A DNA stretch of 34,082 nt, from the sequence record NZ_CP045730.1. The stretch is one strand, 5' to 3'. The translations under genes were made by a program, and so were the position numbers. Source of the DNA: a plasmid. Numbering within the stretch: position 1 is the first letter of the stretch; every line of letters starts with the position of its first letter. The notes beneath the pieces are model-generated. The model saw only the letters and a list, made by a program, of their open reading frames with translations, ran no database searches and was not told the origin of the DNA. Below are positions 20,456 to 33,705 of the stretch, piece by piece.

Positions 20456-23389
20456 TCAAATAGTAAATCTATTTATAACTACTAAACCCAAGCTTAGCAA
20501 TAACGTCACTAGTCCAATTAACATCATACCTATTGATGATTCATTACCTGTTTGAGGTAATTTACCTGTTTTTTCGTAGGTTTTACCTTGAGTGTAAGCT
20601 TTTGGTGTTACCTTATTCCCATTATTAGGAACTTGAGGTTTCTTGGGCGTTGTCGGGTTATTAGGAACCTGGGGCTTCTTAGGCGTTGTCGGATTATGGG
20701 TATTAGTAATATTGTAACCATCGACAGTACTGGTGTACCCCGCAACGGCATTTTCCGTTACCGTGTAGGTGATCTTCTGACCATTAGCATAAGCAGCTAA
20801 GTTGTCGAAACTGTATTGCCAGTTATCACTAGCACTAACCGTCTTACTTGCGACTTGCCGACCGTTAGCCAACAAGTTCACCGTGATTGAACTTGGGCGG
20901 ATTCCATCTTGATTGTTGTTATCCTTCCAAGTCTTGGTTCCGGATACCTTGACGGTGGCAGGAGTATGGTTGTTAGTTACGTTGTAACCATCAACAGTAC
21001 TGGTGTACCCCGCAACCGCATTTTCCGTTACCGTGTAGGTAATCTTCCGACCATTAGCGTAAGCGGCTAAGTTGTCGAAACTGTATTGCCAGTTATCACT
21101 GGCACTAACCGTCTTGCTTGCGACTTGCCGACCGTTAGCCAACAAGTTCACGGTGATTGAGCTTGGGCGGATTCCATCTTGATTGTTGTTATCCTTCCAA
21201 GTCTTGGTTCCAGATACCTTGACAGTGGCAGGAGTGTGGTTGTTGGTTACGTTGTAACCATCAACAGTACTGGTGTACCCCGCAACTGCGTCTTCCGTAA
21301 CTGTGTAGGTAATCTTCTTACCATTAGCATAAGCAGCTAAGTTGTCAAAGCTGTACTGCCAGTTATCACTAGCACTAACTTTCTTGCTTGCGACTTGTTG
21401 ACCATTGGCCAATAAGTTCACTGTGATTGAACTTGGGCGGATTCCATCTTGATTGTTGTTATCGTTCCAAGTCTTGGCTCCAGATACCTTGACGGTGGCA
21501 GGAGTGTGGTTGTTGGTTACGTTGTAACCATCAACAGTACTTGTGTACCCCGCAACTGCGTCTTCCGTAACTGTGTAGGTAATCTTCTTACCATTTTCAA
21601 ATTCAGGTAAGTTAGTAAAGCTGTACTTCCAGTTGTCTGATGCCTTCACTGTCTTACTCTGAACAACCTTACCATTAGCTAATAAGTTTACCTTGATTGA
21701 ATCAGGGCGCTTGCCGTCTTGATCATCATTATCTTTCCAAGTCTTTGTACCTGAAACGGTAGTAACAGCTTTCTTATCTGTGATCGTTGCTGTTGCTCCC
21801 TTAGAGTCAAAACTATCAGCTGAAACAGTAACATCTTTAGCCAATGTATATCCCGATGGAGCCGAAGTTTCACGTATAATATAATCATCTTTTAGAAGAC
21901 CATAAATTGTTCCTTTACCATCAGGACCAGTAGTTATGGTTCCAACAACCCCATTAGTTGACTTGCGAATAACAGAAAAAACAGCATTTGCAAGTGGGGC
22001 TCCAGATTCATCCTCTTTATTTATAGTTAAACTATAATTATATCCATTAGCTTTGCCATTAGCCTCTTGGTAAAGAACTCTATTTATAGAACTGTTTATT
22101 ACCTTCTTATTAGATTTATAGCTAACATCATTCTCGACCAGTTCGCCATTAAGTAATGGATGGTTTGACTTAACCCGGTAGACAATTGCATAACCCTCAG
22201 ATATATTGCCCAATTTCACTGTATAAGCACTATTGCTTGAATTAATATCAATGTTATATTGGCTTGTCACATCTTGTGGATTGCTCAATGTCCAATAGTT
22301 CTCAGAATTTCTTTCCCAATTCCCTTTAGAAATAGAAAAACTTCCGGGCACATAAGAAAAACCATCTGAAGCCAAACTATCAGAGATAACTACATTACTG
22401 ACACTTTGCATAGAGGCGTTAATGTTGACGTGATAGATAATTTCATTCTTGTTATTGTCATAATCAACATATCCGTACTTCCAAAAGTCTGTTGCTGTAT
22501 CACCCTTGGAAGGTATGTGTTTTATACCAGATCTATCAATCGTAACGGTGTGCCCATTAATCTTGATTTCCGCTGGTATGGTCTCTTCTTTATTAATTTC
22601 ACTTGTAGCGGCCGTTACTTGCATATCAATATGGCCACTTATTGAGTCATGTGAATCAACGTAATCGGTGTAGGTTAGAACAAGTGATTTGCTGGGCTTA
22701 TCGATAACTGCTGTAGCTACAACAGTTTTGCCATCAGGTGCATAAATATTAAACTTCTGAGATCGTTGGAAATCTAACTGATCCGGTAATGAAATAGTTG
22801 TTGTATCCCCAGATTTGGCTGAATCTGGAACTGAGAAATCAAAAGAGAATTCTGTAGTTCCTCCACCTGAGATCTCCTTAGTTGATGATCTCTGATTGGT
22901 AATTGTAATATCAACGCTAGTTCCTTTATTATATGCAGATGGGGAACTATTATTCTTAGAAATACTATTAACTGATGGACCCTGATTAGTATTAGCCCCA
23001 CTATTAGAAGTCGAGTATTGACTATTACTTATATAATTACGGTCCTCCTGAACTGGCTGATTATTGTCAGTTGGTGCTCTCGGTTGTGCTTCTGTATTAG
23101 TAACTTGTTTCTGAGACGTCTGATCGTCCGAAGAACTAGTATTATCTGTGGTATTACTATTAACGGTACTTATCTGCGGTTCTTCCTGTTGATTAATAAC
23201 AGTCCCGGACCCCGTACCGTTCTGAGTAATATTTGTCTTGCTATCAGCATATACGGTCATACCATTATTAGATGATATCCATATTGACCCTAATAACGAA
23301 AATAAGACTAGTCCCATCATAAATAAAAGTCGACGATGCCTAGATTTATTACTTATAATGTTGCCTCCTTCTTTGTTTTCTATGCGCAA
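20456..23389 (-). CDS. LPXTG-anchored surface adhesin: signal peptide, Ser/Thr-rich region, A-domain, four ~94-aa B-type (Cna B-like) repeats, Pro-rich stalk and an LPQTG sorting signal
   Basis: LPQTG plus a hydrophobic segment at the C-terminus; a signal-peptide-like N-terminus; four 282-bp DNA repeats (~20700-21830), three of them nearly identical. The start codon is uncertain (TTG at 23389 or a downstream ATT/ATA after a GAAGGAGG). Confidence 0.8.
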   Translation of the reverse strand: MRIENKEGGNIISNKSRHRRLLFMMGLVLFSLLGSIWISSNNGMTVYADSKTNITQNGTGSGTVINQQEEPQISTVNSNTTDNTSSSDDQTSQKQVTNTEAQPRAPTDNNQPVQEDRNYISNSQYSTSNSGANTNQGPSVNSISKNNSSPSAYNKGTSVDITITNQRSSTKEISGGGTTEFSFDFSVPDSAKSGDTTTISLPDQLDFQRSQKFNIYAPDGKTVVATAVIDKPSKSLVLTYTDYVDSHDSISGHIDMQVTAATSEINKEETIPAEIKINGHTVTIDRSGIKHIPSKGDTATDFWKYGYVDYDNNKNEIIYHVNINASMQSVSNVVISDSLASDGFSYVPGSFSISKGNWERNSENYWTLSNPQDVTSQYNIDINSSNSAYTVKLGNISEGYAIVYRVKSNHPLLNGELVENDVSYKSNKKVINSSINRVLYQEANGKANGYNYSLTINKEDESGAPLANAVFSVIRKSTNGVVGTITTGPDGKGTIYGLLKDDYIIRETSAPSGYTLAKDVTVSADSFDSKGATATITDKKAVTTVSGTKTWKDNDDQDGKRPDSIKVNLLANGKVVQSKTVKASDNWKYSFTNLPEFENGKKITYTVTEDAVAGYTSTVDGYNVTNNHTPATVKVSGAKTWNDNNNQDGIRPSSITVNLLANGQQVASKKVSASDNWQYSFDNLAAYANGKKITYTVTEDAVAGYTSTVDGYNVTNNHTPATVKVSGTKTWKDNNNQDGIRPSSITVNLLANGRQVASKTVSASDNWQYSFDNLAAYANGRKITYTVTENAVAGYTSTVDGYNVTNNHTPATVKVSGTKTWKDNNNQDGIRPSSITVNLLANGRQVASKTVSASDNWQYSFDNLAAYANGQKITYTVTENAVAGYTSTVDGYNITNTHNPTTPKKPQVPNNPTTPKKPQVPNNGNKVTPKAYTQGKTYEKTGKLPQTGNESSIGMMLIGLVTLLLSLGLVVINRFTI

Positions 23390-23575
23390 TACTAAAGATT
23401 ATCACATGCCCTTATATTACCATATTCTTATAGAAAATTTCACACTAACTTCATCAACCGTCAACAGTGATATCACTAGTATTAGCGTAGTTAGCAAACG
23501 TATGTTCCTTTAAGTTGCTAGGAAGCTGATTAAAAATAGTCGAAAGTCAGTTATAGTCATGCTATAATGTAAGAC

Positions 23576-23693
23576 AGAAAAAGGAAGCCCCGCGTGAACA
23601 GGACTTCCCATGTAGAGCCGTTTAAGACGGTGGCATAATTTAACGTTATTAAATAACCGCTAGCTTGCCAGAGCTAAGGCGGTTATTTTTTTT
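23576..23693 (+). ncRNA. Candidate antisense/antitoxin sRNA of Fst-like type I TA locus 2
   Basis: The same extended -10 element ATGCTATAAT (23560-23569). Conserved 5' stem GGAAGCCCCGC..CAGGACTTCC, a covarying second stem and a terminator hairpin plus T8. Confidence 0.5.
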
Positions 23694-23787
23694 GCTGACT
23701 TTTAATCAGCTCAACAATTAATGCAATTAAGGCCACGATAAAAGTACCGAAAGCCAGCATTAATTGTAAAGCGTCCGCAACGGACAC
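23683..23787 (-). CDS. Fst/Ldr-like type I toxin peptide (34 aa), paralogue of 18266..18355
   Basis: GTG start with an AAAGGAG ribosome-binding site. Encodes MSVADALQLMLAFGTFIVALIALIVELIKSQQKK, which aligns with the locus-1 peptide. The stop overlaps the sRNA terminator T-run. Confidence 0.5.
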   Translation of the reverse strand: MSVADALQLMLAFGTFIVALIALIVELIKSQQKK

Positions 23788-23945
23788 TTAGGCTACTCCT
23801 TTCATTAGGATTTATGGGCTTTAAAGGTTTAACACCATAAGCACCACCTCCGATCGGAAATAGCCACCGCCTTAACTTCTCTACAAAGAACTATTATACA
23901 GGCAACTCACTGCATGACCAAGCGCTTAAAAGGCTATTTTCAAAA

Positions 23946-24257
23946 TCAATGGTGCCAATTATCAATAATAGCCTTTAAAAGATTTGGAAATCTGTGATCT
24001 AGTTCTGCTTGTCGTAACGTAAGATAACTATGAATACCAGAATGTCTAACGGAAATTAAGCCATTTAAACGTAAATTTCGGTAATGTTGAGATAGATTGC
24101 TCTTCTTTCCTAGATCATTAAAAATGGCACATGAGCATTCCTTGCTTTCTTTAAACAACTTAGTGACAATCTCTAAACGAATAGGATCACTTAAGGATTT
24201 TAGTATTTGCGTAAGGGTAACTTTATTGAGATCAATATTAGGTAAGTTCTCTTTCAT
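23946..24257 (-). CDS. ArsR/SmtB-family transcriptional regulator
   Basis: Winged-HTH block LSDPIRLEIVTKLF..NLSQHYRNLRLNGLI. 103 aa. Confidence 0.8.
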   Translation of the reverse strand: MKENLPNIDLNKVTLTQILKSLSDPIRLEIVTKLFKESKECSCAIFNDLGKKSNLSQHYRNLRLNGLISVRHSGIHSYLTLRQAELDHRFPNLLKAIIDNWHH

Positions 24258-24280
24258 GCATAGCCGCTCCTTTTTTACTT

Positions 24281-24312
24281 TTCAACTGTTTAGTATATAC
24301 TAAACAGTTGAA
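24281..24312. promoter_or_regulatory. Perfect 32-bp palindrome TTCAACTGTTTAGTATATACTAAACAGTTGAA in the divergent arsR / NTF2-like promoter region; candidate operator
   Basis: Both arms were read directly from the sequence. It lies 24 bp upstream of the ArsR start and 14 bp upstream of the NTF2-like ATG. Confidence 0.6.
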
Positions 24313-24325
24313 AGAAGGTAAGTAT

Positions 24326-24688
24326 ATGGATTCAAAAACGCAAATCATTGAACAATACTTTAAGTTATTTGACTTGGCTTCTAATGATGAACAAGCATTG
24401 CATGAAATAATTCAACTCTTTTCAAAAAGGGCTGTGGTCAAGGGTGCTAATGGTTTTGTTGCTGATAATCCGACTAGAGTCGCCGAATTTTTCAAGAATT
24501 TTTTTAAAGATAACCAAGAATTAAGGCATCTTTTCCATGTAGTCGTCGATGATGGTAACTATCAAGCTGAGTGGGCCGTTGCTGGGCGTAAACGTAGTGG
24601 AAAAATATTTGCATTTCATGGTTTTGACACCTACCAATTTGACCAGCAAAACAAAATAAGCTTCTTGAAAGTTAAACTTGAAAAATAG
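24326..24688 (+). CDS. NTF2-like / SnoaL-like small protein of unknown function
   Basis: ~120 aa with a strong ribosome-binding site. The fold assignment rests on size and composition only. Confidence 0.35.
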   Translation: MDSKTQIIEQYFKLFDLASNDEQALHEIIQLFSKRAVVKGANGFVADNPTRVAEFFKNFFKDNQELRHLFHVVVDDGNYQAEWAVAGRKRSGKIFAFHGFDTYQFDQQNKISFLKVKLEK

Positions 24689-24792
24689 AAATAGAAACGG
24701 CCAATAGGGTATACCCTAATGGACTTTTTTATTTCTGTGCTATACTAGGAATTACAAGTGTTCATTAGAACTGTCCAAAAGGAGAATTGGAA

Positions 24793-25377
24793 ATGGCTAA
24801 AATCGGTTATGCGCGTGTGAGTTCCAAGGAGCAACATTTAGATCGACAGTTAGCGGCTTTAAAAGACGTTGATAAATTATTTACGGATAAATTAAGTGGG
24901 GCTAACACTAATCGGCCAGAACTGCAAAAAATGCTGGCCTATATTCGTGAGGGTGATATTGTAATGGTCACTGAATTAGATCGCTTAGGCAGAAACAACC
25001 AGGATTTAACTAAGATCATGAACACCATTCAAAATAAGGGTGCCACCCTAGATGTGTTAAATTTACCGTCCATGACGGGGATTGCGGATCCTAACTTACG
25101 TCAACTGATGACCAACTTGATTATTGAACTCTATAAGTATCAGGCCGAAAGTGAACGTAAGCGAATCATTGAGCGCCAGCAGCAAGGAATTGCCTTAGCT
25201 AAGCGGCAGGGTAAATATCATGGCCGCAAACCCCAATACACCCAAGACGATCCCCGCTTACAACATGCTTTTAAACTTTATCAGGCGGGCATGAGTGATG
25301 TAGACGTCGCCCGTAATACCGGGATTAAGCGGACGACCTTTATCAGATATCGCAAAAAGTTTAATATAAAAAGATAA
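24793..25377 (+). CDS. Serine recombinase (resolvase/invertase family) with a C-terminal HTH
   Basis: N-terminus MAKIGYARVSSKEQHLDRQ with the catalytic Ser. AAGGAG ribosome-binding site. A near-palindrome CCAATAGGGTATACCCTAATGG lies upstream at 24703-24724 and is a candidate res subsite. Confidence 0.85.
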   Translation: MAKIGYARVSSKEQHLDRQLAALKDVDKLFTDKLSGANTNRPELQKMLAYIREGDIVMVTELDRLGRNNQDLTKIMNTIQNKGATLDVLNLPSMTGIADPNLRQLMTNLIIELYKYQAESERKRIIERQQQGIALAKRQGKYHGRKPQYTQDDPRLQHAFKLYQAGMSDVDVARNTGIKRTTFIRYRKKFNIKR

Positions 25378-25573
25378 GACTTGTACACTTTTTATTCTAG
25401 GCCCATTTCTACGATATGAGATATAGGAATTTCAGTAGATATAAGTCCATGAATATCATCAAGTATTTTCATGAAGTTTCTTCCCTTCCTAAGTTTTTAT
25501 CGTTTATTTTCGAAATAGTTAATGGTTTATTAATAATTTCTATGGGGATATAGAGATATATAAGCAAACAAAG

Positions 25574-25849
25574 TTAAGAAAAGTTAACAGTTAATTTTTT
25601 ACCCAAAGCATTTGCAATTTTTGTTAAGGTATCAATGCTAGTGTTAGCCCCACTTTCAATGCGTGCAATTGTTGATTGTGGAACATCAGAAATAGTAGAT
25701 AAATCACGTTGAGAAAGGCCCGAATCTCTCCTTGCTTTTGTTAAAGCAATAGCACTTTCTAACTTAGTAGTCTCATTTTCGAACTCTTTCTTAAATTCAG
25801 GATCTTGTAACTGTTCATTTAAGTAGTCTTTAAAATTAATGTTACTCAT
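25574..25849 (-). CDS. higA: HTH XRE-family antitoxin (HigA-like)
   Basis: 91 aa with the HTH LSQRDLSTISDVPQSTIARIESG, encoded directly downstream of the Gp49/HigB-like toxin. Confidence 0.7.
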   Translation of the reverse strand: MSNINFKDYLNEQLQDPEFKKEFENETTKLESAIALTKARRDSGLSQRDLSTISDVPQSTIARIESGANTSIDTLTKIANALGKKLTVNFS

Positions 25850-25852
25850 GAG

Positions 25853-26215
25853 TTATTGCTCCTTTCGATTAGTAAAGTATTCATCACGTAAAGCTTTCGC
25901 ATGTTTAATTTCTCGTAGAGGGGTTTTCTGAGTTTTCTTAGTAAAACCGTGAGTAATTATATAATGGGTTCCGTCAACATGAAAATATAGTCCACGTTGT
26001 TGATTACTACTGATTCTAGAACGAATTTCATATAAATTCTTATCAAGAGGCTTAACCCAATTATGTTGAATGCTAATATTAATTCCTTTTTTTGCAACGA
26101 TATTAATACGGGCTAATAATTTTGCTCTACTTTTAACGTCAAGACTATCTAAATATTCTTTAAATTCAGTATGACCATTAGGCCGAGTATAAAATTCAAA
26201 ATCTAATTCTTCCAT
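25853..26215 (-). CDS. higB: Type II toxin, HigB / Gp49-like RelE superfamily
   Basis: 120 aa; the block GLYFHVDGTHYIITHGFTKKTQKTP is typical of Gp49-family toxins. The toxin-first gene order matches HigBA. Confidence 0.65.
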   Translation of the reverse strand: MEELDFEFYTRPNGHTEFKEYLDSLDVKSRAKLLARINIVAKKGINISIQHNWVKPLDKNLYEIRSRISSNQQRGLYFHVDGTHYIITHGFTKKTQKTPLREIKHAKALRDEYFTNRKEQ

Positions 26216-26622
26216 ACATTATACGATATCATATATTAGTTAAAATATCAATATGTGCTATCAAAAAGAAGAAACTAAATATTATATCCACAACGTATTA
26301 CTTTTTGGGGTTATCCAAGAACGAAAGAGAAAATTAATTATAAGCGATCGTAATACTGTTCTTTATATAGGAATGATTGAATTGGACCTATGTCTGAAGT
26401 TTATCAGAGATAGATCCTAATATTAAAGCTAATTAATCAAATTTAACTTCATCTAACATTTGTTCACGGCTAACTTGATCTAGGCCCAGATACTTGAGTT
26501 AGATTTAAATTGTCTATTTTATTGACAGGGGACCACCTATCGTGAAACCGTTAATGAGTTTAATATCTCCAAATCTTAAAAGAGAGTCCTATTAGTAAAG
26601 AATAGAGTGTAATTTTTGTAGC

Positions 26623-27183
26623 TTACGTAGTAGTGTACTTAAAAGGACAGTCTTCGATATGATCGTTAATTAGGCCTACCGCTTCAAGAAAGGAGTAGGT
26701 TGTTACTGGCCCCATAAATTGAAAACCTATTTCTTTAAACTCTTTTGCTAGGTTTCGAGATAGCCTATTCTGGGTCGGTATATCAGTAAACTGTTGAGGG
26801 TGGTTAACGATTGGCTGTGGAATTAAGGTTGTTAGTACTGTACACAATTGGTGCCCTTCACGGTGCATTTTAGTCATTACACGAGCATTATTAATGGCGG
26901 CATCAATTTTTCGCTGATTACGAATGATTCCTCGGTTTTTCAGTAATTGCTTACGTTGATTACTGGTAAATTTTGCAACCCGCTCCACATTAAAGCCTGC
27001 AAAGGCTTGTCGAAAATTTTCTCGCTTATCCAAGACTAATTGCCAACTAAGTCCCGATTGAAAGGATTCTAGAACCATCATCTCATATAAGTAATTCTCG
27101 TTGAGGTTCAGCTTACCCCATTCGTGGTCATGATACTTCGTAAGGAATGGAGCATCATCGTTTTTCGGAAAGCAGCGTTTCAT
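26623..27183 (-). CDS. tag: DNA-3-methyladenine glycosylase I
   Basis: Motifs YHDHEWG and GPVTTYSFLEAVGLINDH; Cys/His zinc-knuckle residues. 186 aa. Confidence 0.85.
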   Translation of the reverse strand: MKRCFPKNDDAPFLTKYHDHEWGKLNLNENYLYEMMVLESFQSGLSWQLVLDKRENFRQAFAGFNVERVAKFTSNQRKQLLKNRGIIRNQRKIDAAINNARVMTKMHREGHQLCTVLTTLIPQPIVNHPQQFTDIPTQNRLSRNLAKEFKEIGFQFMGPVTTYSFLEAVGLINDHIEDCPFKYTTT

Positions 27184-27375
27184 TTAATTCCTCCTAATAG
27201 TAATTTTGATCAATCAGAATTTGAACATAAAAAGGGCATCTTTTCAGATGTCCCACCGGTTCGGATAAGTAATCGACTGACTTGATTTATACATCAGCAT
27301 CATCGTTCTTGTATTGTTGCTACTTTCTAAGAAGCAGCTAAAAAAACTGATTAAGTCCATTAACATTTCAGCAAA

Positions 27376-27405
27376 ACAAATCAGTGCCTGTCGCGTGTGA
27401 CAGGT
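27376..27405 (-). terminator. Hairpin CCTGTCGCGTGTGACAGG with a T-rich tail downstream of the MFS gene
   Basis: Inverted repeat read from the sequence. It lies ~25 bp after the MFS stop codon. Confidence 0.45.
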
Positions 27406-27424
27406 GTTTTTGTTATTCTTAGAG

Positions 27425-28777
27425 TTATTTGAAACTATTTTTACTTAGGGCAAAATCTAGAGCTATTGCAATTATAATTAAGCATCCTGCAGTAATCCAA
27501 CCAAGTTTAATAGCTGTTACTAGTTCATGAGACCACATGTTTAAAAATACTGAACCTGTTGCTGTACCCATAGCAATAGCAACATTTTGAACCATTCGTT
27601 GGAGTGAACCAATACTACCCTGTGAAGTGATATCAGTAGTTTTCATAATTACAGATATGTTCGCCGGTTGGAAATAACCACCACCTACACCATAAATAAA
27701 CAAACAAATTGTAACTAAAATATATGGTAAAGATGTTTGATATAGGCTCAAGAGTAGTAATGAACAAAGAATAATAGATAATCCGACTTTAGAAAAGGAA
27801 TTATCTTTCAAACCATTATTATGTGCACTAGATATTCTAGAAAATAAAACTAGACCTATAGGTGCACCTAGTACCAGTATACCCGTCAATCCTGAATTTA
27901 ATTTAAAGACAGTTTCAAACAAATAAGGTGGCATAAGAAAGATTATGGCTGAAGCAAAGCCAAAGGCAATCGTTTCATATAGATATACCAGTAGCGATTT
28001 ATTCTGAATAAGATTTATTACATTGACAACAGGAGTTTCTTTATTTCTTTCTACTTTAAACAAGATAATTACAGCTATTAGACTAGCAATTATTAATGCT
28101 ATCCCAATAATACTATGTGAGCTTAGCAATGACAATCCACTAATAAGCAATATCACAAATAGTCCATTAGTAAGACTTCCAGGGTAATCAATGTGTTTAG
28201 CGTATTTATTCTCAGAGATCTCTGTAATTAATTTGTGATTACAAATGAGTCCCAGAAGGACGAACGGAATGTTTAACCAAAATATTCCTCTCCAACTATT
28301 TAATGATAGTAGCAATCCACCTAATGAAGGACCAAGTACAGGTCCGACACCAATCATAATTCCTAAAACTCCGATAGCAGAACTGGATTTTTCAGCAGAA
28401 ACTAAGGTAGTAATTAAAGAGGCTGATGTTGCTTGTAATGCAGCTGCACCAATACCTTGGAAAATTCGAAACATAATTAACATTTGAATATTAGCTGAAA
28501 GTCCGCAAAGTAATGAGCTAAGCCCAAAAATTATCAGTCCAATATATGAGAACGATAGTTTACCAAATTTATCACTAAGTAGTCCAAAAGGAAGAATAAA
28601 AACAGCAAGGCTAATAGTATAACCCGTAACTGCAATAGCAGCAATGTCTGCTGTAGTTTCAAAGTAAGATTTAAAAAATGGTAGTGCAACATTGATAATC
28701 CCTGTATCTAATGTTGATAATAACATTCCTATGCCAGCAACTATAACGACTAAATTATCTTTAGTTCTTATATTCAT
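27425..28777 (-). CDS. MFS transporter, 14-TMS drug:H+ antiporter-like (DHA2-like) exporter
   Basis: 450 aa and very hydrophobic with ~14 predicted helices. Its ATG overlaps the upstream gene's stop within ATGA. Confidence 0.75.
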   Translation of the reverse strand: MNIRTKDNLVVIVAGIGMLLSTLDTGIINVALPFFKSYFETTADIAAIAVTGYTISLAVFILPFGLLSDKFGKLSFSYIGLIIFGLSSLLCGLSANIQMLIMFRIFQGIGAAALQATSASLITTLVSAEKSSSAIGVLGIMIGVGPVLGPSLGGLLLSLNSWRGIFWLNIPFVLLGLICNHKLITEISENKYAKHIDYPGSLTNGLFVILLISGLSLLSSHSIIGIALIIASLIAVIILFKVERNKETPVVNVINLIQNKSLLVYLYETIAFGFASAIIFLMPPYLFETVFKLNSGLTGILVLGAPIGLVLFSRISSAHNNGLKDNSFSKVGLSIILCSLLLLSLYQTSLPYILVTICLFIYGVGGGYFQPANISVIMKTTDITSQGSIGSLQRMVQNVAIAMGTATGSVFLNMWSHELVTAIKLGWITAGCLIIIAIALDFALSKNSFK

Positions 28778-29616
28778 AGCGCATTCTCCAGAAAGAATGA
28801 AAGTCTACCATCTTTTAATTTTAACTTTGCTTTACTGGTTTGGCTCCAACTAACACTATTTACCTTGAATACATTATCGTTAATTTGGACGTAAGCATTA
28901 CCAGGAGCGCAAGCTTTTAGTTTTGCTAATGCTGATGATACAGTATCATTGTTGGTAATTGTTTTATCTGCCTGTGATGGGTTGCTATGATAATCTCTTT
29001 TCGTCATATCTTGCTTATGGGTTTTAAGTGGTCCCTGACAAATTAGATCTAAAACGTCATTAAATAGAGAAAAAGATGCTTTAAATAGCTTTTCTCTGAC
29101 CTCTAGTGAATTTTCATTTCCTGTTAACCTAACTTTCCTTTGGAGAACAATATCTCCACCATCTATTTCAGGTGTAACTTCTATACAGGAAACACCAGTA
29201 TTTTTTTCTCCATTTAGAGACATCCAAAAGAATGGTGCTAAGCCAGCATATCTTGGTAATGGACTAGGATGGAAATTTAATGTTTTAAGCTTAGGAAATT
29301 CGATTAGATTCTTTTTGAAAATCTTTTGATAATTAGCAATCAATATATAATCAGGGTTGAAATCGCTTAATTCATCTATAAATTTGGAAGAATTTATATT
29401 GTTGGGTCTAAATACTGGTATATCTTTTGATTCTGCATACTTTTCTAGGTCCACCGGATTATCTTCATTTATATAATAAGAGCATAGTTTTCCCTCGGGG
29501 GTTGTAACAAACGCTTTTATATTAAATCGGTCATCATGGTAAAGCATTTTAAAGATAGGCATGCCAAATTTAGAATTAACTTCCGAAAAGAAGATGATGT
29601 TAAATTTTTGTGTCAT
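28774..29616 (-). CDS. Formyltransferase-fold enzyme (Fmt/PurN/ArnA-like N-domain)
   Basis: LNFHPSPLPRYAG matches the N-x-H..SLLP..RG formyltransferase motif (Asn and His present). A catalytic Asp candidate lies in EIDGGDIV. Its start overlaps the E1 gene end by 17 bp. Confidence 0.6.
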   Translation of the reverse strand: MTQKFNIIFFSEVNSKFGMPIFKMLYHDDRFNIKAFVTTPEGKLCSYYINEDNPVDLEKYAESKDIPVFRPNNINSSKFIDELSDFNPDYILIANYQKIFKKNLIEFPKLKTLNFHPSPLPRYAGLAPFFWMSLNGEKNTGVSCIEVTPEIDGGDIVLQRKVRLTGNENSLEVREKLFKASFSLFNDVLDLICQGPLKTHKQDMTKRDYHSNPSQADKTITNNDTVSSALAKLKACAPGNAYVQINDNVFKVNSVSWSQTSKAKLKLKDGRLSFFLENAL

Positions 29617-30505
29617 CGGTCCACCATTTTCCTTTCTTAACTTCTGTAGTCCAATTTAATGTATCAAAATATACATATCCAGGTTGTGCTGGTACTTCAA
29701 TAGCACCAGGTAATTTATTAAGCCCTGTTATCTCTTGAGCTAAGCGTTCAGCTAACACACCTTCTGCGATAGGGGGACACGCTGCAAAAATGGGCATCCT
29801 ATGCATGTCTACAAACCAATGATCTAGAGTCTCTTTGCTTGGATACTTGGGCATGTGAGGAATAATTCTTTCCATTAAACGGTGAATTACCTTAGGGCTT
29901 AATTCAGAATCTTCTTTAATACCATACACATCCTCGATCTTCATTGAGTCTTTTGTATATTTGAAAATATATGTTCCGTGAGCAACCGTTGGAACTTTGA
30001 AAATAAGCTTTGCTTTTGATGACTTTCTAAATGCACGGTGTAGAGCATATCGATTTGCAATTTCGTAAAATTCCATTTGATCTAAAACATAATCACAATC
30101 TTGAACAAAATCTTCGGCTGTTTCCTTAGTAATACCTTCAGGGTAAACTGCTATATTTACATCATGATTCAAGCTGTAAGTCATTTCTGCAACAACTTCT
30201 GCCTTATTTTTTCCAATATGTTGCAGATCAGCACCCATTTGCCTATTCATATTTGAAATATCAAATGTATCTGGGTCTGCCAATTTTAGATTTCGAACGC
30301 CCATTCGAACTAACCGTTGTGCAAGTTGTCCTCCTATTCCACCAGTGCCTGCTATTCCAATTACAACATTTTTCAATTTTTCTTGCTTATTATGTTGTTC
30401 CTGTTTGGTGTCACCGAGCCAACCCAAACTACGATTTACCCTTTTCCAATACATCTCTTCGTCGGGGATTGCTGTGTATTTTAAGTGTTTTTTGTCGTGA
30501 ATCAT
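29600..30505 (-). CDS. ThiF/MoeB/HesA-family E1-like adenylyltransferase
   Basis: Rossmann motif VVIGIAGTGGIGGQLAQRLVRMGVRNLKLADPDTFDISNMNRQ. No CxxC zinc site and only a ~45-aa N-terminal extension. An AAGGAGG ribosome-binding site is present. Confidence 0.7.
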   Translation of the reverse strand: MIHDKKHLKYTAIPDEEMYWKRVNRSLGWLGDTKQEQHNKQEKLKNVVIGIAGTGGIGGQLAQRLVRMGVRNLKLADPDTFDISNMNRQMGADLQHIGKNKAEVVAEMTYSLNHDVNIAVYPEGITKETAEDFVQDCDYVLDQMEFYEIANRYALHRAFRKSSKAKLIFKVPTVAHGTYIFKYTKDSMKIEDVYGIKEDSELSPKVIHRLMERIIPHMPKYPSKETLDHWFVDMHRMPIFAACPPIAEGVLAERLAQEITGLNKLPGAIEVPAQPGYVYFDTLNWTTEVKKGKWWTDDTKI

Positions 30506-30601
30506 TCTATTAATCCTCCTTGTTAGATTGTGCTAATTATGCTAATATAAATCCAATTAACAATCAATCGATTCAAGAAATATCGAATCAAAGAGGACAA
30601 A

Positions 30602-31708
30602 ATGACTATTAGGATAAACTTTAGTAAATACTCTACTGTAACAGACGAGACACTAACTCAAAGATTTCAGTTTGTTTATTCACCACTGAATGAACTTCTT
30701 AGAAGTCTTCATGTCTTGATGAATCCTAGGCATCATGGGTTAGTTATAGATTGGGCCTTAAAGACAATGGAACAATTAGATAAAGAGGATATTGATAATT
30801 TGTACTACTTTAGTCCTGTATATGAATTAGGTGTTCCTCCCACTATACTTTGTAATTTTCAATACAATGCTAGTAATCTAAAGGATGAACTATCCATGCT
30901 TCGCGCTTTTCTTAGTAGGCAAAGTAATGTAAATGGACTAATTAATGAGTTATCCACCTTAAATCACGATAGAAGTAACACGTTCATTCCAAATTTAGCT
31001 AAAGGTCTTGAATGGCAGGATTTTTCTATTAACCGGAATTCATTACTTATAAAAGACCTTAGTGGTAACCCGCAAACTGTCATTAACCGTTTTTTTAAAT
31101 TTATCGTTAAGTATAATGACAATGTTTTTTCTGCGGTTTGGGAAAAAGATAATATTAAAAAACTGTTATTTCAGGAAATCAAGATACGGGCGAACTCAAT
31201 TAATATTCATGGTATTCGAAGTACTATAGACGAATTGCAAGTAGCCCGTATGCACTGGAAAAATGATACTTTAATTATTAATAAGCCTTTTGAGAGAGAA
31301 ATTGATCTTAAAGATACTGACACAATTATGCTCATACCAAGTTTTTTTACTTGGCCTCATCTATTCGTTGATACATTTAAAAATGGAGTGGTCATTACTT
31401 ACGGACTACAAAAAAGAGCAGATCTAATTTATACACCAAAAGAACTATTATTAACTTTTAAGGCTCTTAGTGAACCAACCAGACTTCAGATCTTGAAAAC
31501 CGTTTCGAAGTCACCTTGTACTACACAAGGACTGTCACAGCTTTTATCACTAGGTACCTCGACTGTATCCAGGCATTTACAAATATTAAAAGAAGCAAAT
31601 TTACTAAGAACCACAAAACAAAAAAAGTTCGTTCTTTATCAAATAACAAATAGAATATTTGAGTTAGTTCCTAATTTTTTAGATTTTATGAGAGATGATA
31701 ACAAATGA
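30602..31708 (+). CDS. Atypical ArsR-family regulator: ~270-aa N-terminal domain of unknown function (DUF5937-like) plus a C-terminal ArsR winged HTH
   Basis: C-terminal block LSEPTRLQILKTVSKSPCTTQGLSQLLSLGTSTVSRHLQILKEANLL. The N-terminal segment RFQFVYSPLNELLRSLHVL resembles DUF5937-ArsR proteins. The gene is divergent from the E1 operon. Confidence 0.55.
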   Translation: MTIRINFSKYSTVTDETLTQRFQFVYSPLNELLRSLHVLMNPRHHGLVIDWALKTMEQLDKEDIDNLYYFSPVYELGVPPTILCNFQYNASNLKDELSMLRAFLSRQSNVNGLINELSTLNHDRSNTFIPNLAKGLEWQDFSINRNSLLIKDLSGNPQTVINRFFKFIVKYNDNVFSAVWEKDNIKKLLFQEIKIRANSINIHGIRSTIDELQVARMHWKNDTLIINKPFEREIDLKDTDTIMLIPSFFTWPHLFVDTFKNGVVITYGLQKRADLIYTPKELLLTFKALSEPTRLQILKTVSKSPCTTQGLSQLLSLGTSTVSRHLQILKEANLLRTTKQKKFVLYQITNRIFELVPNFLDFMRDDNK

Positions 31709-32277
31709 GAGTTGTAAATAGTGCACTTACCTGTAATAAATGGTTGACTGTTAATGAACTGTCAAAAGTCTGCCATTTAAGCAGAGAAGAAGTAATAAGT
31801 CAACTTCAGTGTGATAAAACTATTATTTCATTACATTTTTACGGTAGATGGTATTACAAAAATAAAATGAGCTATAATGTAACGAAATTAGGTAATGCCA
31901 GTAATAACATGTTGGATAGTAGAAATACCATTAGTAATTTAGGAATTGCAAGAACTTGTTTACATCATCTTGGTGGAAAACTAGGGGTCACTATTTTTAG
32001 GTATGCTGAGCTTAAATATCTAATCTTCACTTCTGATAAAGTTAACTATTCTTTTACTGAAAAAGGGAAAAATATATTCAGCAAGTTTTGTAAAGTAAAT
32101 CAAGCTACCGTGCCCTGTTGCTTAGATTTCTCGGAGCGAAATTTCCACTTTGGAGGAAGAATAGGAAATGATCTTCTAAATTATTTATTGGAAGACGATT
32201 TGTGTAAGTTAACCAAAAGTCGAAAAGTAGAACTTTGTAAAGAGCCTGCTAGTATTGTTCAATCGGTTTTTACCTAA
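31705..32277 (+). CDS. Cys-rich (9 Cys) HTH-like protein, translationally coupled to the preceding regulator
   Basis: ATGA start/stop overlap with the upstream gene. N-terminal HTH-like segment LTVNELSKVCHLSREEV. An internal pair of C-L-x-H..GG+xG motifs (TCLHHLGGKLG and CCLDFSERNFHFGGRIG). Confidence 0.35.
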   Translation: MRVVNSALTCNKWLTVNELSKVCHLSREEVISQLQCDKTIISLHFYGRWYYKNKMSYNVTKLGNASNNMLDSRNTISNLGIARTCLHHLGGKLGVTIFRYAELKYLIFTSDKVNYSFTEKGKNIFSKFCKVNQATVPCCLDFSERNFHFGGRIGNDLLNYLLEDDLCKLTKSRKVELCKEPASIVQSVFT

Positions 32278-32317
32278 GTTAAGTTACGAAATAGGACTTT
32301 TAGTTTGATCGTTTAGG

Positions 32318-33675
32318 GAGTGTAAAATATTTTGTGTAAATTGATACCTTGAGGGTATTGAAAAAGGGAAAGCCTTCCCCGTATGATTGAAATCGCCAAA
32401 AACCAATCAGAATACGGAGGCTTTCCCCATGAACCAGTTTAACAAAGATATTATCGCAGCGCTATCTTCCAACAAAGATATTACCCTGAATGAAGTCTTA
32501 CGTCGTCAAATTAAAGTGGCCGCTAATCAGTTCCTTCAAAATGAACTGACTGCGGTGCTAGGCTACGAACCACATACTCGGATCGACCGATCAAAAGACG
32601 ACGTGAACTACCGGAACGGGACGTACACCCGCACGATCGACACTGAGTACGGTGAAATTAATCTGACGATCCCACGGGACCGGTTAAACAAGTTTCAAAA
32701 CGCCCTCTTCCCTCCTTACGTGCGTCGGACTGATGGACTGGAGGAAATGGTCATCAAGATGTACTCCAAGAGCGTCACAACTCGTGAAATCGCTGATATG
32801 GTTGAGAGAATGTACGGCCACTACTACTCACCAACCACGGTTTCAAACATCACTAAGCGGACGGAACACCTGGTTGAAGAGTTCCACGAGCGCAGATTCA
32901 AGTACTCACAGTACGTCTGTGTGTTCCTCGATGCTACTTACATTCCGTTACGCCGTGGTACCGTTGAACGAGAAGCCGTTAACGTAGCGATCGGAATTCG
33001 AAGTGACGGCGGTAAGGAAGCTCTTGACTACAGTATCGCACCGACCGAGAACGGAGCCGCTTGGTCTGAACTACTCCAGGGATTACGCGCACGGGGATTA
33101 AAGATATTCAGTTGTTCATCGTCGACGGTTTAGTTGTACTTCAATCTGCGATTGAGGCTAACTACCCGCAGGCGAAGTTTCAAAGGTGCTGGGTCCACGC
33201 AGAGCGCAACCTTTTAGGGTACGTTCGCAAAAACGATCGCAGGGAGATTATCACCGACTTTAAGGCTATTCGACAAGCAGAGAACCTACAAGCCGCCAAA
33301 GAACGATTGGCGGCTTTCAGTGCTAAGTGGGAGTCCAGTTATAAGCGTCGAATCAAGAATCTAGTCCAAATGGAGGAGCTATTCACGTTCTTCAGTTTTC
33401 CAACTGCGATCCGTCAGACCATCTACTCGACGAACCTAATTGAGTCGTTCAATAAGAGCCTGAAGAAGATGGTCCGACGTAAAGAGCAGTTCCCAAACGA
33501 AGGGGCCCTCGATCGCTTTATCATGACGCAAGTAATGGAGTACAACGATAAAGCGATCGAGCACATCGGGGATTCAAGGACTGTCACGACACGCTTGATT
33601 CGATGTTTTAGAATTGCCAATTCATGCGGGCGAAGTTTCCCTTTTTACACAACATTCTTGACACTCTCGAAAAAG
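32318..33675 (+). mobile_element. IS256-family insertion sequence; transposase broken by a 1-nt indel
   Basis: Terminal inverted repeats GAGTGTAAAATATTTTGTGTAAA (left) and TTTACACAACATTCTTGACACTC (right, inside the ORF read-through). Boundaries are approximate. Confidence 0.6.
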
Positions 33676-33705
33676 CGCCTCACAATGGTTAGAACTTTTG
33701 TCTAA
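32429..33705 (+). pseudogene. IS256-family (Mutator-like) transposase, frameshifted at ~33098
   Basis: The two ORFs 32387..33133 and 33112..33705 join as ..ARGLK|DIQLFIVDGL if one A is restored in TTAAAG. Motifs: N-terminal LTAVLGYEPH.., central DGLK, C-terminal CWVH. Confidence 0.7.

Follow-up and report, generated by a model that had tools for sequence, protein, structure and literature searches.

The 34,082-nucleotide stretch of plasmid record NZ_CP045730.1 analyzed here (hereafter the window) carries a compact block of five genes. A minus-strand operon encodes an E1/ThiF-family adenylating enzyme (E1), a formyltransferase-fold enzyme (Fmt-like) and a major facilitator superfamily (MFS) permease, and two ArsR-type regulators are transcribed divergently from it (Table 1). 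The five open reading frames (ORFs), their overlaps (17 bp, ATGA and ATGA) and their family assignments had been claimed in an original prediction made from the sequence, and all of them are present on re-reading and in Pfam and NCBIfam searches. By direct reading, the 17 bp shared by the E1 and Fmt genes have the letters ATGACACAAAAATTTAA, and the ATGA overlap between the Fmt and MFS genes recurs at the junction of the two regulator genes.

Table 1. Features of the five-gene block and of its borders (positions in the window).
Feature	Position	Strand	Remarks
MFS permease, probable efflux pump of DHA2/EmrB type, 450 aa	27425-28777	-	start overlaps the Fmt stop
Formyltransferase-fold enzyme (Fmt-like), 280 aa	28774-29616	-	translationally coupled to the E1 gene, 17-bp overlap
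E1/ThiF-family adenylating enzyme, 301 aa	29600-30505	-	first gene of the operon; ribosome-binding site AAGGAGG
Divergent control region, 96 bp	30506-30601	.	dyad and candidate promoters
DUF5937 N-domain + ArsR/SmtB winged helix-turn-helix (wHTH) regulator, 368 aa	30602-31708	+	
Two-domain ArsR-like regulator, 190 aa	31705-32277	+	ATGA coupling to the 368-aa gene
Candidate promoter of the E1 gene	-35 at 30563-30558, -10 at 30541-30536	-	consensus match only
Candidate promoter of the regulator genes	-35 at 30520-30525, -10 at 30543-30548	+	consensus match only
Segment deleted in the closest relatives, 1343 bp	28808-30150	.	E1 residues 119-301 and nearly the whole Fmt gene
IS256-family element bordering the block	32316-33705	+	outside the system; transposase in two ORFs, 32387-33133 and 33112-33705

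The E1 protein belongs to the superfamily of ThiF/MoeB/E1 proteins (ThiF in Pfam, PF00899, 9e-33) with a Rossmann-type adenylation domain, the GxGxxG motif, the Arg finger, the Lys and the Mg-binding Asp, and its residues for ATP binding and adenylation are invariant in the family alignment. It begins about 40 residues before GxGxxG and lacks the N-terminal clamp of MccB-type enzymes, which resembles a recognition element (RRE) of ribosomally synthesized and post-translationally modified peptides (RiPPs). A role as a sulfur-carrier adenylyltransferase of the ThiF/MoeB kind is not supported: the scores against the curated NCBIfam models lie below their cut-offs (PRK08644, 88 vs 159; TIGR02356, 80 vs 275; PRK05690, 64 vs 266), the only invariant cysteines are C137 and C243 with no CxxC zinc motif, and no small beta-grasp gene is found in the loci.

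Relatives of the E1 protein were sought in a complete HMMER search that covered 1.84 billion 50%-cluster representatives. The nearest non-orthologous relatives include natural fusions, which score 98-142 bits against the window E1 in phmmer and comprise FeeM/autoinducer-synthase-like N-acyltransferase-ThiF proteins (P0172 and P0185), a ThiF protein fused to a T_hemolysin-like acyltransferase (P0148) and ThiF proteins fused to an Acg-family flavin-dependent oxidase (FDO; P0208 and P0258), with P0258 matching PRK14851 end to end. TcdA, ThiF, MoeB, PaaA and MccB reach at most 45 bits in the same comparison. The window E1 and the fusion proteins share an NCBIfam ranking in which PRK08223 stands above PRK14851, and the best single-domain solved match of the E1 family profile is the cyclodehydratase TcdA (64 bits). 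The ThiF domain of the window E1 is thus closer to ThiF-FDO and acyltransferase-ThiF proteins than to the E1 enzymes of sulfur carriers, ubiquitin-like proteins or tRNA, which suggests that it belongs with the small-molecule ThiF enzymes OxzB, TyzB and TrzS. Two database proteins, P0034 (454 aa, Logan) and P0003 (446 aa), are 99% identical to the window E1 and longer than it; P0034 has both a ThiF and a Formyl_trans_N domain, and reflects an E1-Fmt fusion created by a frameshift or else an error of assembly.

The partner of the E1 enzyme matches Pfam Formyl_trans_N (1.5e-24) and scores 137.8 bits against TIGR00460 fmt, whose cut-off is 201.5. Its catalytic Asn and His lie in NFHPSPLP and its Asp in IDGG, with the HPSxLP folate-site motif kept; the orthologues conserve NxHPSPLPxYAG and I/LDxG, and 13 of 14 retain the Asn/His/Asp triad. 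Loss of this triad, named beforehand as a finding that would speak against the prediction, is therefore not what the alignment reveals. The C-terminal subdomain, which in this fold is of the tRNA-binding type, is divergent in the window protein and absent from the Corynebacterium and Brevibacterium orthologues, which argues for a small-molecule acceptor and against tRNA. Judged by its sequence, the Fmt-like protein is best regarded as a member of the formyltransferase fold and not as a Met-tRNA formyltransferase proper. The third gene encodes a transporter matching Pfam MFS_1 (4e-43) and TIGR00711 (DHA2/EmrB) over profile positions 4-409 of 485 (4.5e-42; 144.4 bits, cut-off 230.2). A crude hydropathy scan fits 12-14 transmembrane segments, a range that includes the 14 of the original prediction, and the protein is labeled mdeA-like by PLSDB's RGI.

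In all of the approximately 35 retrieved loci whose E1 is at least 57% identical to that of the window, the Fmt gene lies directly downstream of the E1 gene and often overlaps it. The MFS gene is usually the next after Fmt, and a divergent ArsR-type regulator lies upstream. These loci come from Firmicutes, Actinobacteria, Cyanobacteria and Proteobacteria, so that the proposed check on co-conservation of the neighborhood finds the E1-Fmt pair kept across at least four phyla. The conservation of the E1 protein is unusually high: it is 84% identical to its orthologues in Streptococcus gallolyticus and Enterococcus faecium, and it shares about 60% identity with proteins from Streptomyces and other actinomycetes, from a cyanobacterium and from gammaproteobacteria. 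The MFS gene follows E1-Fmt in Firmicutes, a gammaproteobacterial metagenome-assembled genome (MAG), Acetobacteraceae, Corynebacterium, Brevibacterium, Curtobacterium and several unclassified metagenome contigs; it is located upstream of E1 in the single cyanobacterial locus (L066, Mastigocladus laminosus), in which a 69-aa ORF without a Pfam match, unseen in other phyla, separates E1 from Fmt (6975-7184). The whole five-gene block occurs in S. gallolyticus in two distinct chromosomal contexts, one of them beside Rep_trans, integrase and MazEF genes, indicating that the block moves as a unit.

In some genomes the E1-Fmt pair may be embedded in larger pathways. On metagenome contig L068 (4808-10492), the genes flanking E1-Fmt-MFS encode a Haem_oxygenase_2+Cupin protein, whose architecture is SznF-like, together with an AMP-binding enzyme, a MatE pump and a PGA_cap (CapA-like) protein. 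The Streptomyces loci (L007-L009) have PGA_cap, O-methyltransferase and RidA genes downstream.

More distant branches of the E1 family have other partners. E1 proteins of the subclade at 45-49% identity are paired with a T_hemolysin-like protein (gene downstream of E1; L038, L040, L041, L043, L046 and L059), and those of the subclade at 41-44% identity, from Pseudomonas (L048-L058), occur with an MFS protein, a FeeM-like GNAT and a class-III aminotransferase; FeeM-like and T_hemolysin-like partners are limited to these two subclades. A regulator of the two-domain ArsR-like family found in the window and an exporter (EamA or MFS) are recurrent in the sister loci. These partners, together with the fusions described above, tie every branch of the E1 family to an N-acyltransferase, which in the window is a formyltransferase. 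In the Pseudomonas syringae group the genes form a conserved operon (L048-L058, at approximately 5900-12150) that comprises alpha/beta hydrolase, E1, MFS, FeeM-like GNAT and class-III aminotransferase genes and adjoins a gene of the phosphoenolpyruvate (PEP)-mutase family; this uncharacterized sister cassette could be a phytopathogen metabolite pathway.

The divergent pair of regulators called for by the original prediction is present and both members are ArsR-type, with very different distributions. The 368-aa protein matches DUF5937 (1.8e-18), HTH_5 (7e-12) and also HTH_20 in Pfam and exceeds the cut-off of NF033788 HTH_metalloreg (63.9 bits, cut-off 55), and its DUF5937-ArsR orthologues were seen solely in Firmicutes loci, whereas the 190-aa member is broadly conserved. 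The latter has no Pfam match and aligns with a large family of approximately 226-aa two-domain ArsR/SmtB proteins, with more than 7,900 matches in a search with its Bacillus cereus homologue; the family was detected by aligning the ORFs of the loci and by this B. cereus query, while a word-indexed search with the 190-aa protein gave 5 matches. In Corynebacterium, Brevibacterium, Curtobacterium, Propionibacteriaceae, Streptomyces and a Bacillota MAG, the E1 cassettes have a homologue of the 190-aa protein upstream in divergent orientation; the homologue lies near the cassette in Acidithiobacillus and some 3 kb downstream of it in B. cereus. It is therefore the 190-aa two-domain ArsR-like protein, and not the DUF5937 protein, that accompanies the E1 cassettes across phyla. 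Its AlphaFold 2 model is of moderate confidence (predicted local distance difference test score, pLDDT, 71) and has an N-terminal wHTH that matches SmtB/NolR, followed by winged-helix-like repeats; a fold search with this model returned generic wHTH matches only. Described earlier as a Cys-rich HTH protein, it is indeed of the HTH (wHTH) type, but just two Cys and two His are conserved, in the invariant motifs RxC85xxH88 and C139LDxxER-x2-H148.

For the control region, a direct repeat had been put forward as the operator. Both repeat sequences exist (ATCGATTCAAG at 30567-30577 and ATCGAATCAAAG at 30582-30593), but they are better described as a dyad, CGATTC-N10-GAATCA, at 30569-30590. The position of the dyad is conserved in the Streptococcus, Lentilactobacillus and Bacillus loci, and changes in one arm are matched in the other (CGATTC/GAATCG vs CGATTT(C)/(G)AAATCG). 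In the window it is situated just upstream of the -35 element of the candidate E1 promoter and also within the predicted leader of the regulator transcript. The dyad is thus a candidate operator that is conserved across genera.

The surroundings of the block are those of mobile DNA. The window, which comes from a Limosilactobacillus, carries ParA, RepA, a MobA/L relaxase, insertion sequence (IS) elements and an LPXTG adhesin, and is mobilizable plasmid-like. The IS256-type border claimed for the block is present (Pfam Transposase_mut, 2.9e-62 and 3.8e-35), and homology to related plasmids stops at 32315. The transposase of this copy is divided into overlapping ORFs of 248 and 197 aa (32387-33705), and the element is probably frameshifted and inactive. 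The block has a GC content of 33.3%, compared with 38.2% for the window and 36.2% for the adjoining 21501-27424; the description of the block as markedly more AT-rich holds in so far as no other 4.85-kb stretch of the window has a lower GC content, but the gap is only about 5 points.

In the closest plasmid relatives, from L. plantarum, L. gasseri, L. portuensis, Lactobacillus sp. 3B, L. oris and L. antri, E1 and Fmt are mostly deleted. These derivatives, on plasmids or contigs of the six taxa, keep a 118-aa stub that matches E1, and their pump, regulators and Tag gene are 98-99% identical to those of the window. In the four loci in which coordinates were compared, those of L. plantarum, Lactobacillus sp. 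3B, L. oris and L. antri (L001, L002, L044 and L045), the junction of the 1343-bp deletion is the same, which suggests a single deletion event followed by horizontal spread; the L. gasseri and L. portuensis plasmids show a two-piece match of the same kind. In three Corynebacterium genomes (L063, L064 and L065, approximately 8001-8441), E1 is detectable only over its first ~100 residues and Fmt only over its last ~59, beside an intact MFS gene and regulator; this appears to be an independent internal deletion of both enzyme genes. The loss of E1 and Fmt is compatible with the shedding of a costly biosynthetic function and also with a pump that is useful alone.

Several better-known explanations for an E1 gene were tried and rejected. 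The original prediction had seen no precursor-peptide ORF, and indeed no short ORF with a ribosome-binding site was found in the three flanking and intergenic gaps, the 96-bp upstream region included, nor any small gene conserved across phyla (the 69-aa cyanobacterial ORF is not conserved elsewhere); a precursor peptide is rejected on both counts. An anti-phage E1 system (CBASS Cap2, Bil or 6A-MBL) is rejected because the E1 protein has only generic PADLOC matches, spanning the ~100-residue E1 core of 430-780-aa E1-E2 models, with no E2, JAMM, CD-NTase or ubiquitin-like component fused to it or paired with it; none of the other four proteins has a defense-specific match, as three have no PADLOC match and the DUF5937-ArsR protein matches only generic wHTH models such as Csa3/CARF. 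A known curated pathway is rejected since every NCBIfam match for E1, Fmt and MFS falls under its cut-off, and literature searches on the gene pair and its regulator returned no paper on an E1-Fmt pair and no reported resistance phenotype. The cassette is uncharacterized: no curated model, no defense-system match and no paper on the pair was found in these searches, so that the gene set did not turn out to be a known annotated pathway. With the pair co-conserved and the triad intact, the earlier overall reading is supported, namely an E1 and an Fmt-like enzyme working on one substrate, MFS export and divergent regulators in an uncharacterized, horizontally acquired system.

We tentatively propose, at a confidence just short of calling it probable, that the block is a self-contained, mobile cassette for the biosynthesis and export of a small molecule, operating in the order Fmt, E1 and MFS. 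By analogy with acyltransferase-coupled ThiF pathways, the scheme would have three steps (N-formylation, adenylation/cyclodehydration and export). At first, the Fmt-fold enzyme would move a formyl group from 10-formyl-tetrahydrofolate (10-formyl-THF) onto a common amino-carboxylate metabolite at its amino group, the simplest case being an amino acid. The carboxylate of the N-formyl product would then be adenylated by E1 with ATP, and the acyl-amide would attack the activated carboxylate intramolecularly in a cyclodehydration such as those of OxzB, TyzB, TrzS and TcdA. The outcome would be a 2-unsubstituted 5(4H)-oxazolone, or a derivative formed by its reaction with a further nucleophile, which the DHA2-type MFS pump would export. 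The two ArsR-type proteins would bind the conserved dyad and control transcription from the shared 96-bp region.

Several observations weigh against this proposal. The FDO domains of P0208 and P0258 had no tblastn match in any of the 68 loci, and the Pfam neighbor lists contain no flavin desaturase, so the product cannot be an unsaturated acyl-oxazolone of the classical type. A saturated 2-H oxazolone would itself be labile, and the true end product may differ; by analogy, a labile 2-H oxazolone may form and react further. The window E1 is placed by model rankings and by comparison with proteins of like architecture, not with the sequences of OxzB, TyzB and TrzS. Many Streptomyces loci have no adjacent MFS gene. 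Derivatives without E1 and Fmt, and with the pump and regulators, have spread among Lactobacillaceae plasmids, and the frequent location of the cassette on mobile DNA, next to a pump of drug-efflux type and to ArsR-type regulators, would suit a resistance module as well.

The last two points lead to the strongest rival, an inducible detoxification and efflux system in which a toxic amine or carboxylate compound (an antimetabolite, antibiotic or organometalloid) would be N-formylated and/or adenylylated and pumped out, with the ArsR-type proteins as sensors of the toxin. The DHA2 drug-efflux-type, mdeA-like pump, the ArsR/SmtB-type regulators, one of them with a conserved C-H-C-H motif, and the occurrence of the cassette on plasmids, near integrative and conjugative element (ICE) genes and beside transposases are all in its favor, as are the deletion derivatives of several species that retain an intact pump and regulators. 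However, the sister cassettes have FeeM-type N-acyl amino acid synthases, which are biosynthetic; E1 proteins of different phyla are ~60% identical, and in Streptomyces the gene is chromosomal and has no pump beside it; and the literature searched holds no resistance phenotype. Two successive modifications that consume ATP and folate before efflux would also be unusual for a resistance determinant. Since the deletion derivatives are compatible with a pump that is useful alone, we retain this explanation as unlikely but serious.

The remaining alternatives are far less probable. A peptide-free pathway resembling that of microcin C would have an MccB-like E1 act on a free (N-formyl) amino acid such as Asn to give a stable aminoacyl-adenylate-type antimetabolite, exported by an MccC-like MFS protein, with formylation masking the amine for self-protection as acetylation by MccE does. 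We consider this very unlikely: the family profile aligns only to MccB residues ~81-190, leaving no N-terminal peptide-clamp domain, the gaps hold no short precursor ORF, MccF- and MccE-type immunity genes are absent, and MccB, at 35-50 bits, is much less similar in sequence to the E1 protein than the acyltransferase-coupled ThiF enzymes are. Slightly more improbable still is a macromolecular substrate, in which E1 would activate a RiPP, a ubiquitin-like or sulfur-carrier protein, a tRNA or an aminoacyl-tRNA, and the Fmt-like enzyme would act on the same polymer. Although most characterized ThiF-family enzymes act on proteins, peptides or tRNA, and Met-tRNA formyltransferase and ArnA are the closest relatives of the Fmt-like protein, neither a beta-grasp or GG-ended ORF nor a short conserved one lies within or next to the cassette in any phylum; RRE/clamp, E2, JAMM and rhodanese domains and a CxxC zinc site are absent, the C-terminal domain of Fmt is lost in Actinobacteria, and an apparent dedicated small-molecule exporter is present. 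We know of no precedent for a route from formamide to isonitrile by a ThiF enzyme. Such a route, in which Fmt would make an N-formyl amine and E1 would activate and eliminate the formamide oxygen with ATP before export of the isonitrile, is the least credible of all, having on its side only the chemical logic by which an ATP-dependent ThiF enzyme of dehydratase type, as TcdA is, would act after formylation, and the possible fit of a metal-binding isonitrile with metal-regulator-like partners, and against it that the characterized ThiF enzymes all adenylate carboxylates (bioRxiv 10.1101/2020.06.11.147165) and that the sister cassettes pair E1 with long-chain acyltransferases, whose amides cannot yield isonitriles.

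Returning to the small-molecule biosynthesis and export cassette, we can be more specific only at greater risk. It is possible, though doubtful, that its product is a secreted C1-acyl (N-formyl) amino-acid-derived heterocycle or activated species of a previously unknown class, either a 2-H oxazolone or a peptide-free aminoacyl-adenylate-type antimetabolite, made only from an amino acid, 10-formyl-THF and ATP, and acting as an antimicrobial, a signal or a metal-responsive effector. On this reading, the cassette spreads on mobile elements among Limosilactobacillus, S. gallolyticus, E. faecium, Corynebacterium and Brevibacterium (gut, oral and skin commensals) and in addition Streptomyces and cyanobacteria; since commensals and opportunists associated with humans have it on mobile DNA, a bioactive product might be relevant to the chemistry of the microbiome. 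The proposal is directly testable by heterologous expression because only three genes and primary metabolites are required and, if true, it would widen the range of reactions known for the E1 fold and for the formyltransferase fold alike.

Two further loci of the plasmid are recorded here. At 13822-16118, a P-type (E1-E2) ATPase ORF of 600 aa stops inside the hydrolase domain, immediately next to a 164-aa ORF, which may reflect a frameshift in a cation pump. At 23946-24688, a second small ArsR-like protein (103 aa) is encoded divergently from a SnoaL-like 126-aa protein and is another regulator-enzyme pair on the same plasmid.

The original prediction held that each known E1 system differs from this architecture. 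That stands in so far as no curated model or paper covers the gene set, but the closest analogues, OxzAB, TyzABC and TrzAS, had been missed. Among the more familiar systems, microcin C (MccA/MccB/MccC) likewise combines an E1-type adenylating enzyme and an MFS exporter in an operon on a mobile element; the window differs in having no peptide-clamp N-domain, no MccA-like ORF and no MccD/E/F, and has a formyltransferase partner instead. In pantocin A biosynthesis (PaaP/PaaA/PaaB/PaaC), the substrate of PaaA is a 30-aa precursor peptide and the enzyme has an additional N-terminal domain, whereas the window has neither a precursor gene nor a 2-oxoglutarate-dependent (2OG) oxygenase. TcdA/CsdL, the tRNA t6A cyclodehydratase, has tRNA as its substrate and no paired acyltransferase or exporter, and the alignment with it is limited to the N-terminal ~105 residues. 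AclA from Tenacibaculum discolor (PDB 9egb, released 2025) is 18% identical, and no functional inference is drawn from it.

The oxazolone pathways are represented by OxzA/OxzB in Pseudoalteromonas rubra and by TyzA/TyzC/TyzB and TrzA/TrzS in Mycobacterium tuberculosis. OxzB, TyzB and TrzS carry out the ATP-dependent cyclization to oxazolones of N-acyl amino acids supplied by a partner acyltransferase, and in the case of TrzS a saturated cyclized intermediate is detectable and forms before desaturation (bioRxiv 10.1101/2020.06.11.147165, PMC10404671, PMC12856293). The TrzS variant D217A, altered at the residue equivalent to D142 of the window E1, lost cyclase activity (PMC12856293). Hydroxylamine or methanol gave adducts with the oxazolones. 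OxzB and TrzS (Rv1355c) have the ThiF-flavin oxidase architecture, while TyzB (Rv2338c, 'MoeW', UniProt P95234) is a stand-alone ThiF protein of ~318 aa (PMC10404671), as is the window E1. All three systems, like the window, combine an N-acyltransferase with a ThiF-family enzyme, and by analogy the window E1 would activate the carboxylate of a small molecule with ATP. They differ from it in the acyl-donor enzyme, which is a FeeM/GNAT-type acyl-CoA/acyl carrier protein (ACP) transferase in the oxazolone pathways and of the folate-dependent formyltransferase fold (Formyl_trans_N) in the window, so that the acyl group would be C1; a formyl variant is unmentioned in the oxazolone papers (0 occurrences in PMC12856293). 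Unlike these pathways, the window cassette has no fused or nearby desaturase of the flavin-dependent oxidase (nitroreductase-superfamily) type, and it includes a dedicated MFS exporter and ArsR-type regulators. With these as the closest analogues, the architecture of the window is a variant of a known logic and not unprecedented. Small-molecule ThiF/E1 enzymes were recognized only in 2020-2025, via OxzB, TyzB and TrzS, and the present analysis defines a large, cross-phylum and highly conserved sister group whose acyl donor enzyme is a folate-dependent formyltransferase and whose product is apparently exported. By this analogy, the cassette is a variant of the small-molecule pathways that join an N-acyltransferase to a ThiF enzyme, here coupled to a formyltransferase and linked to an exporter.

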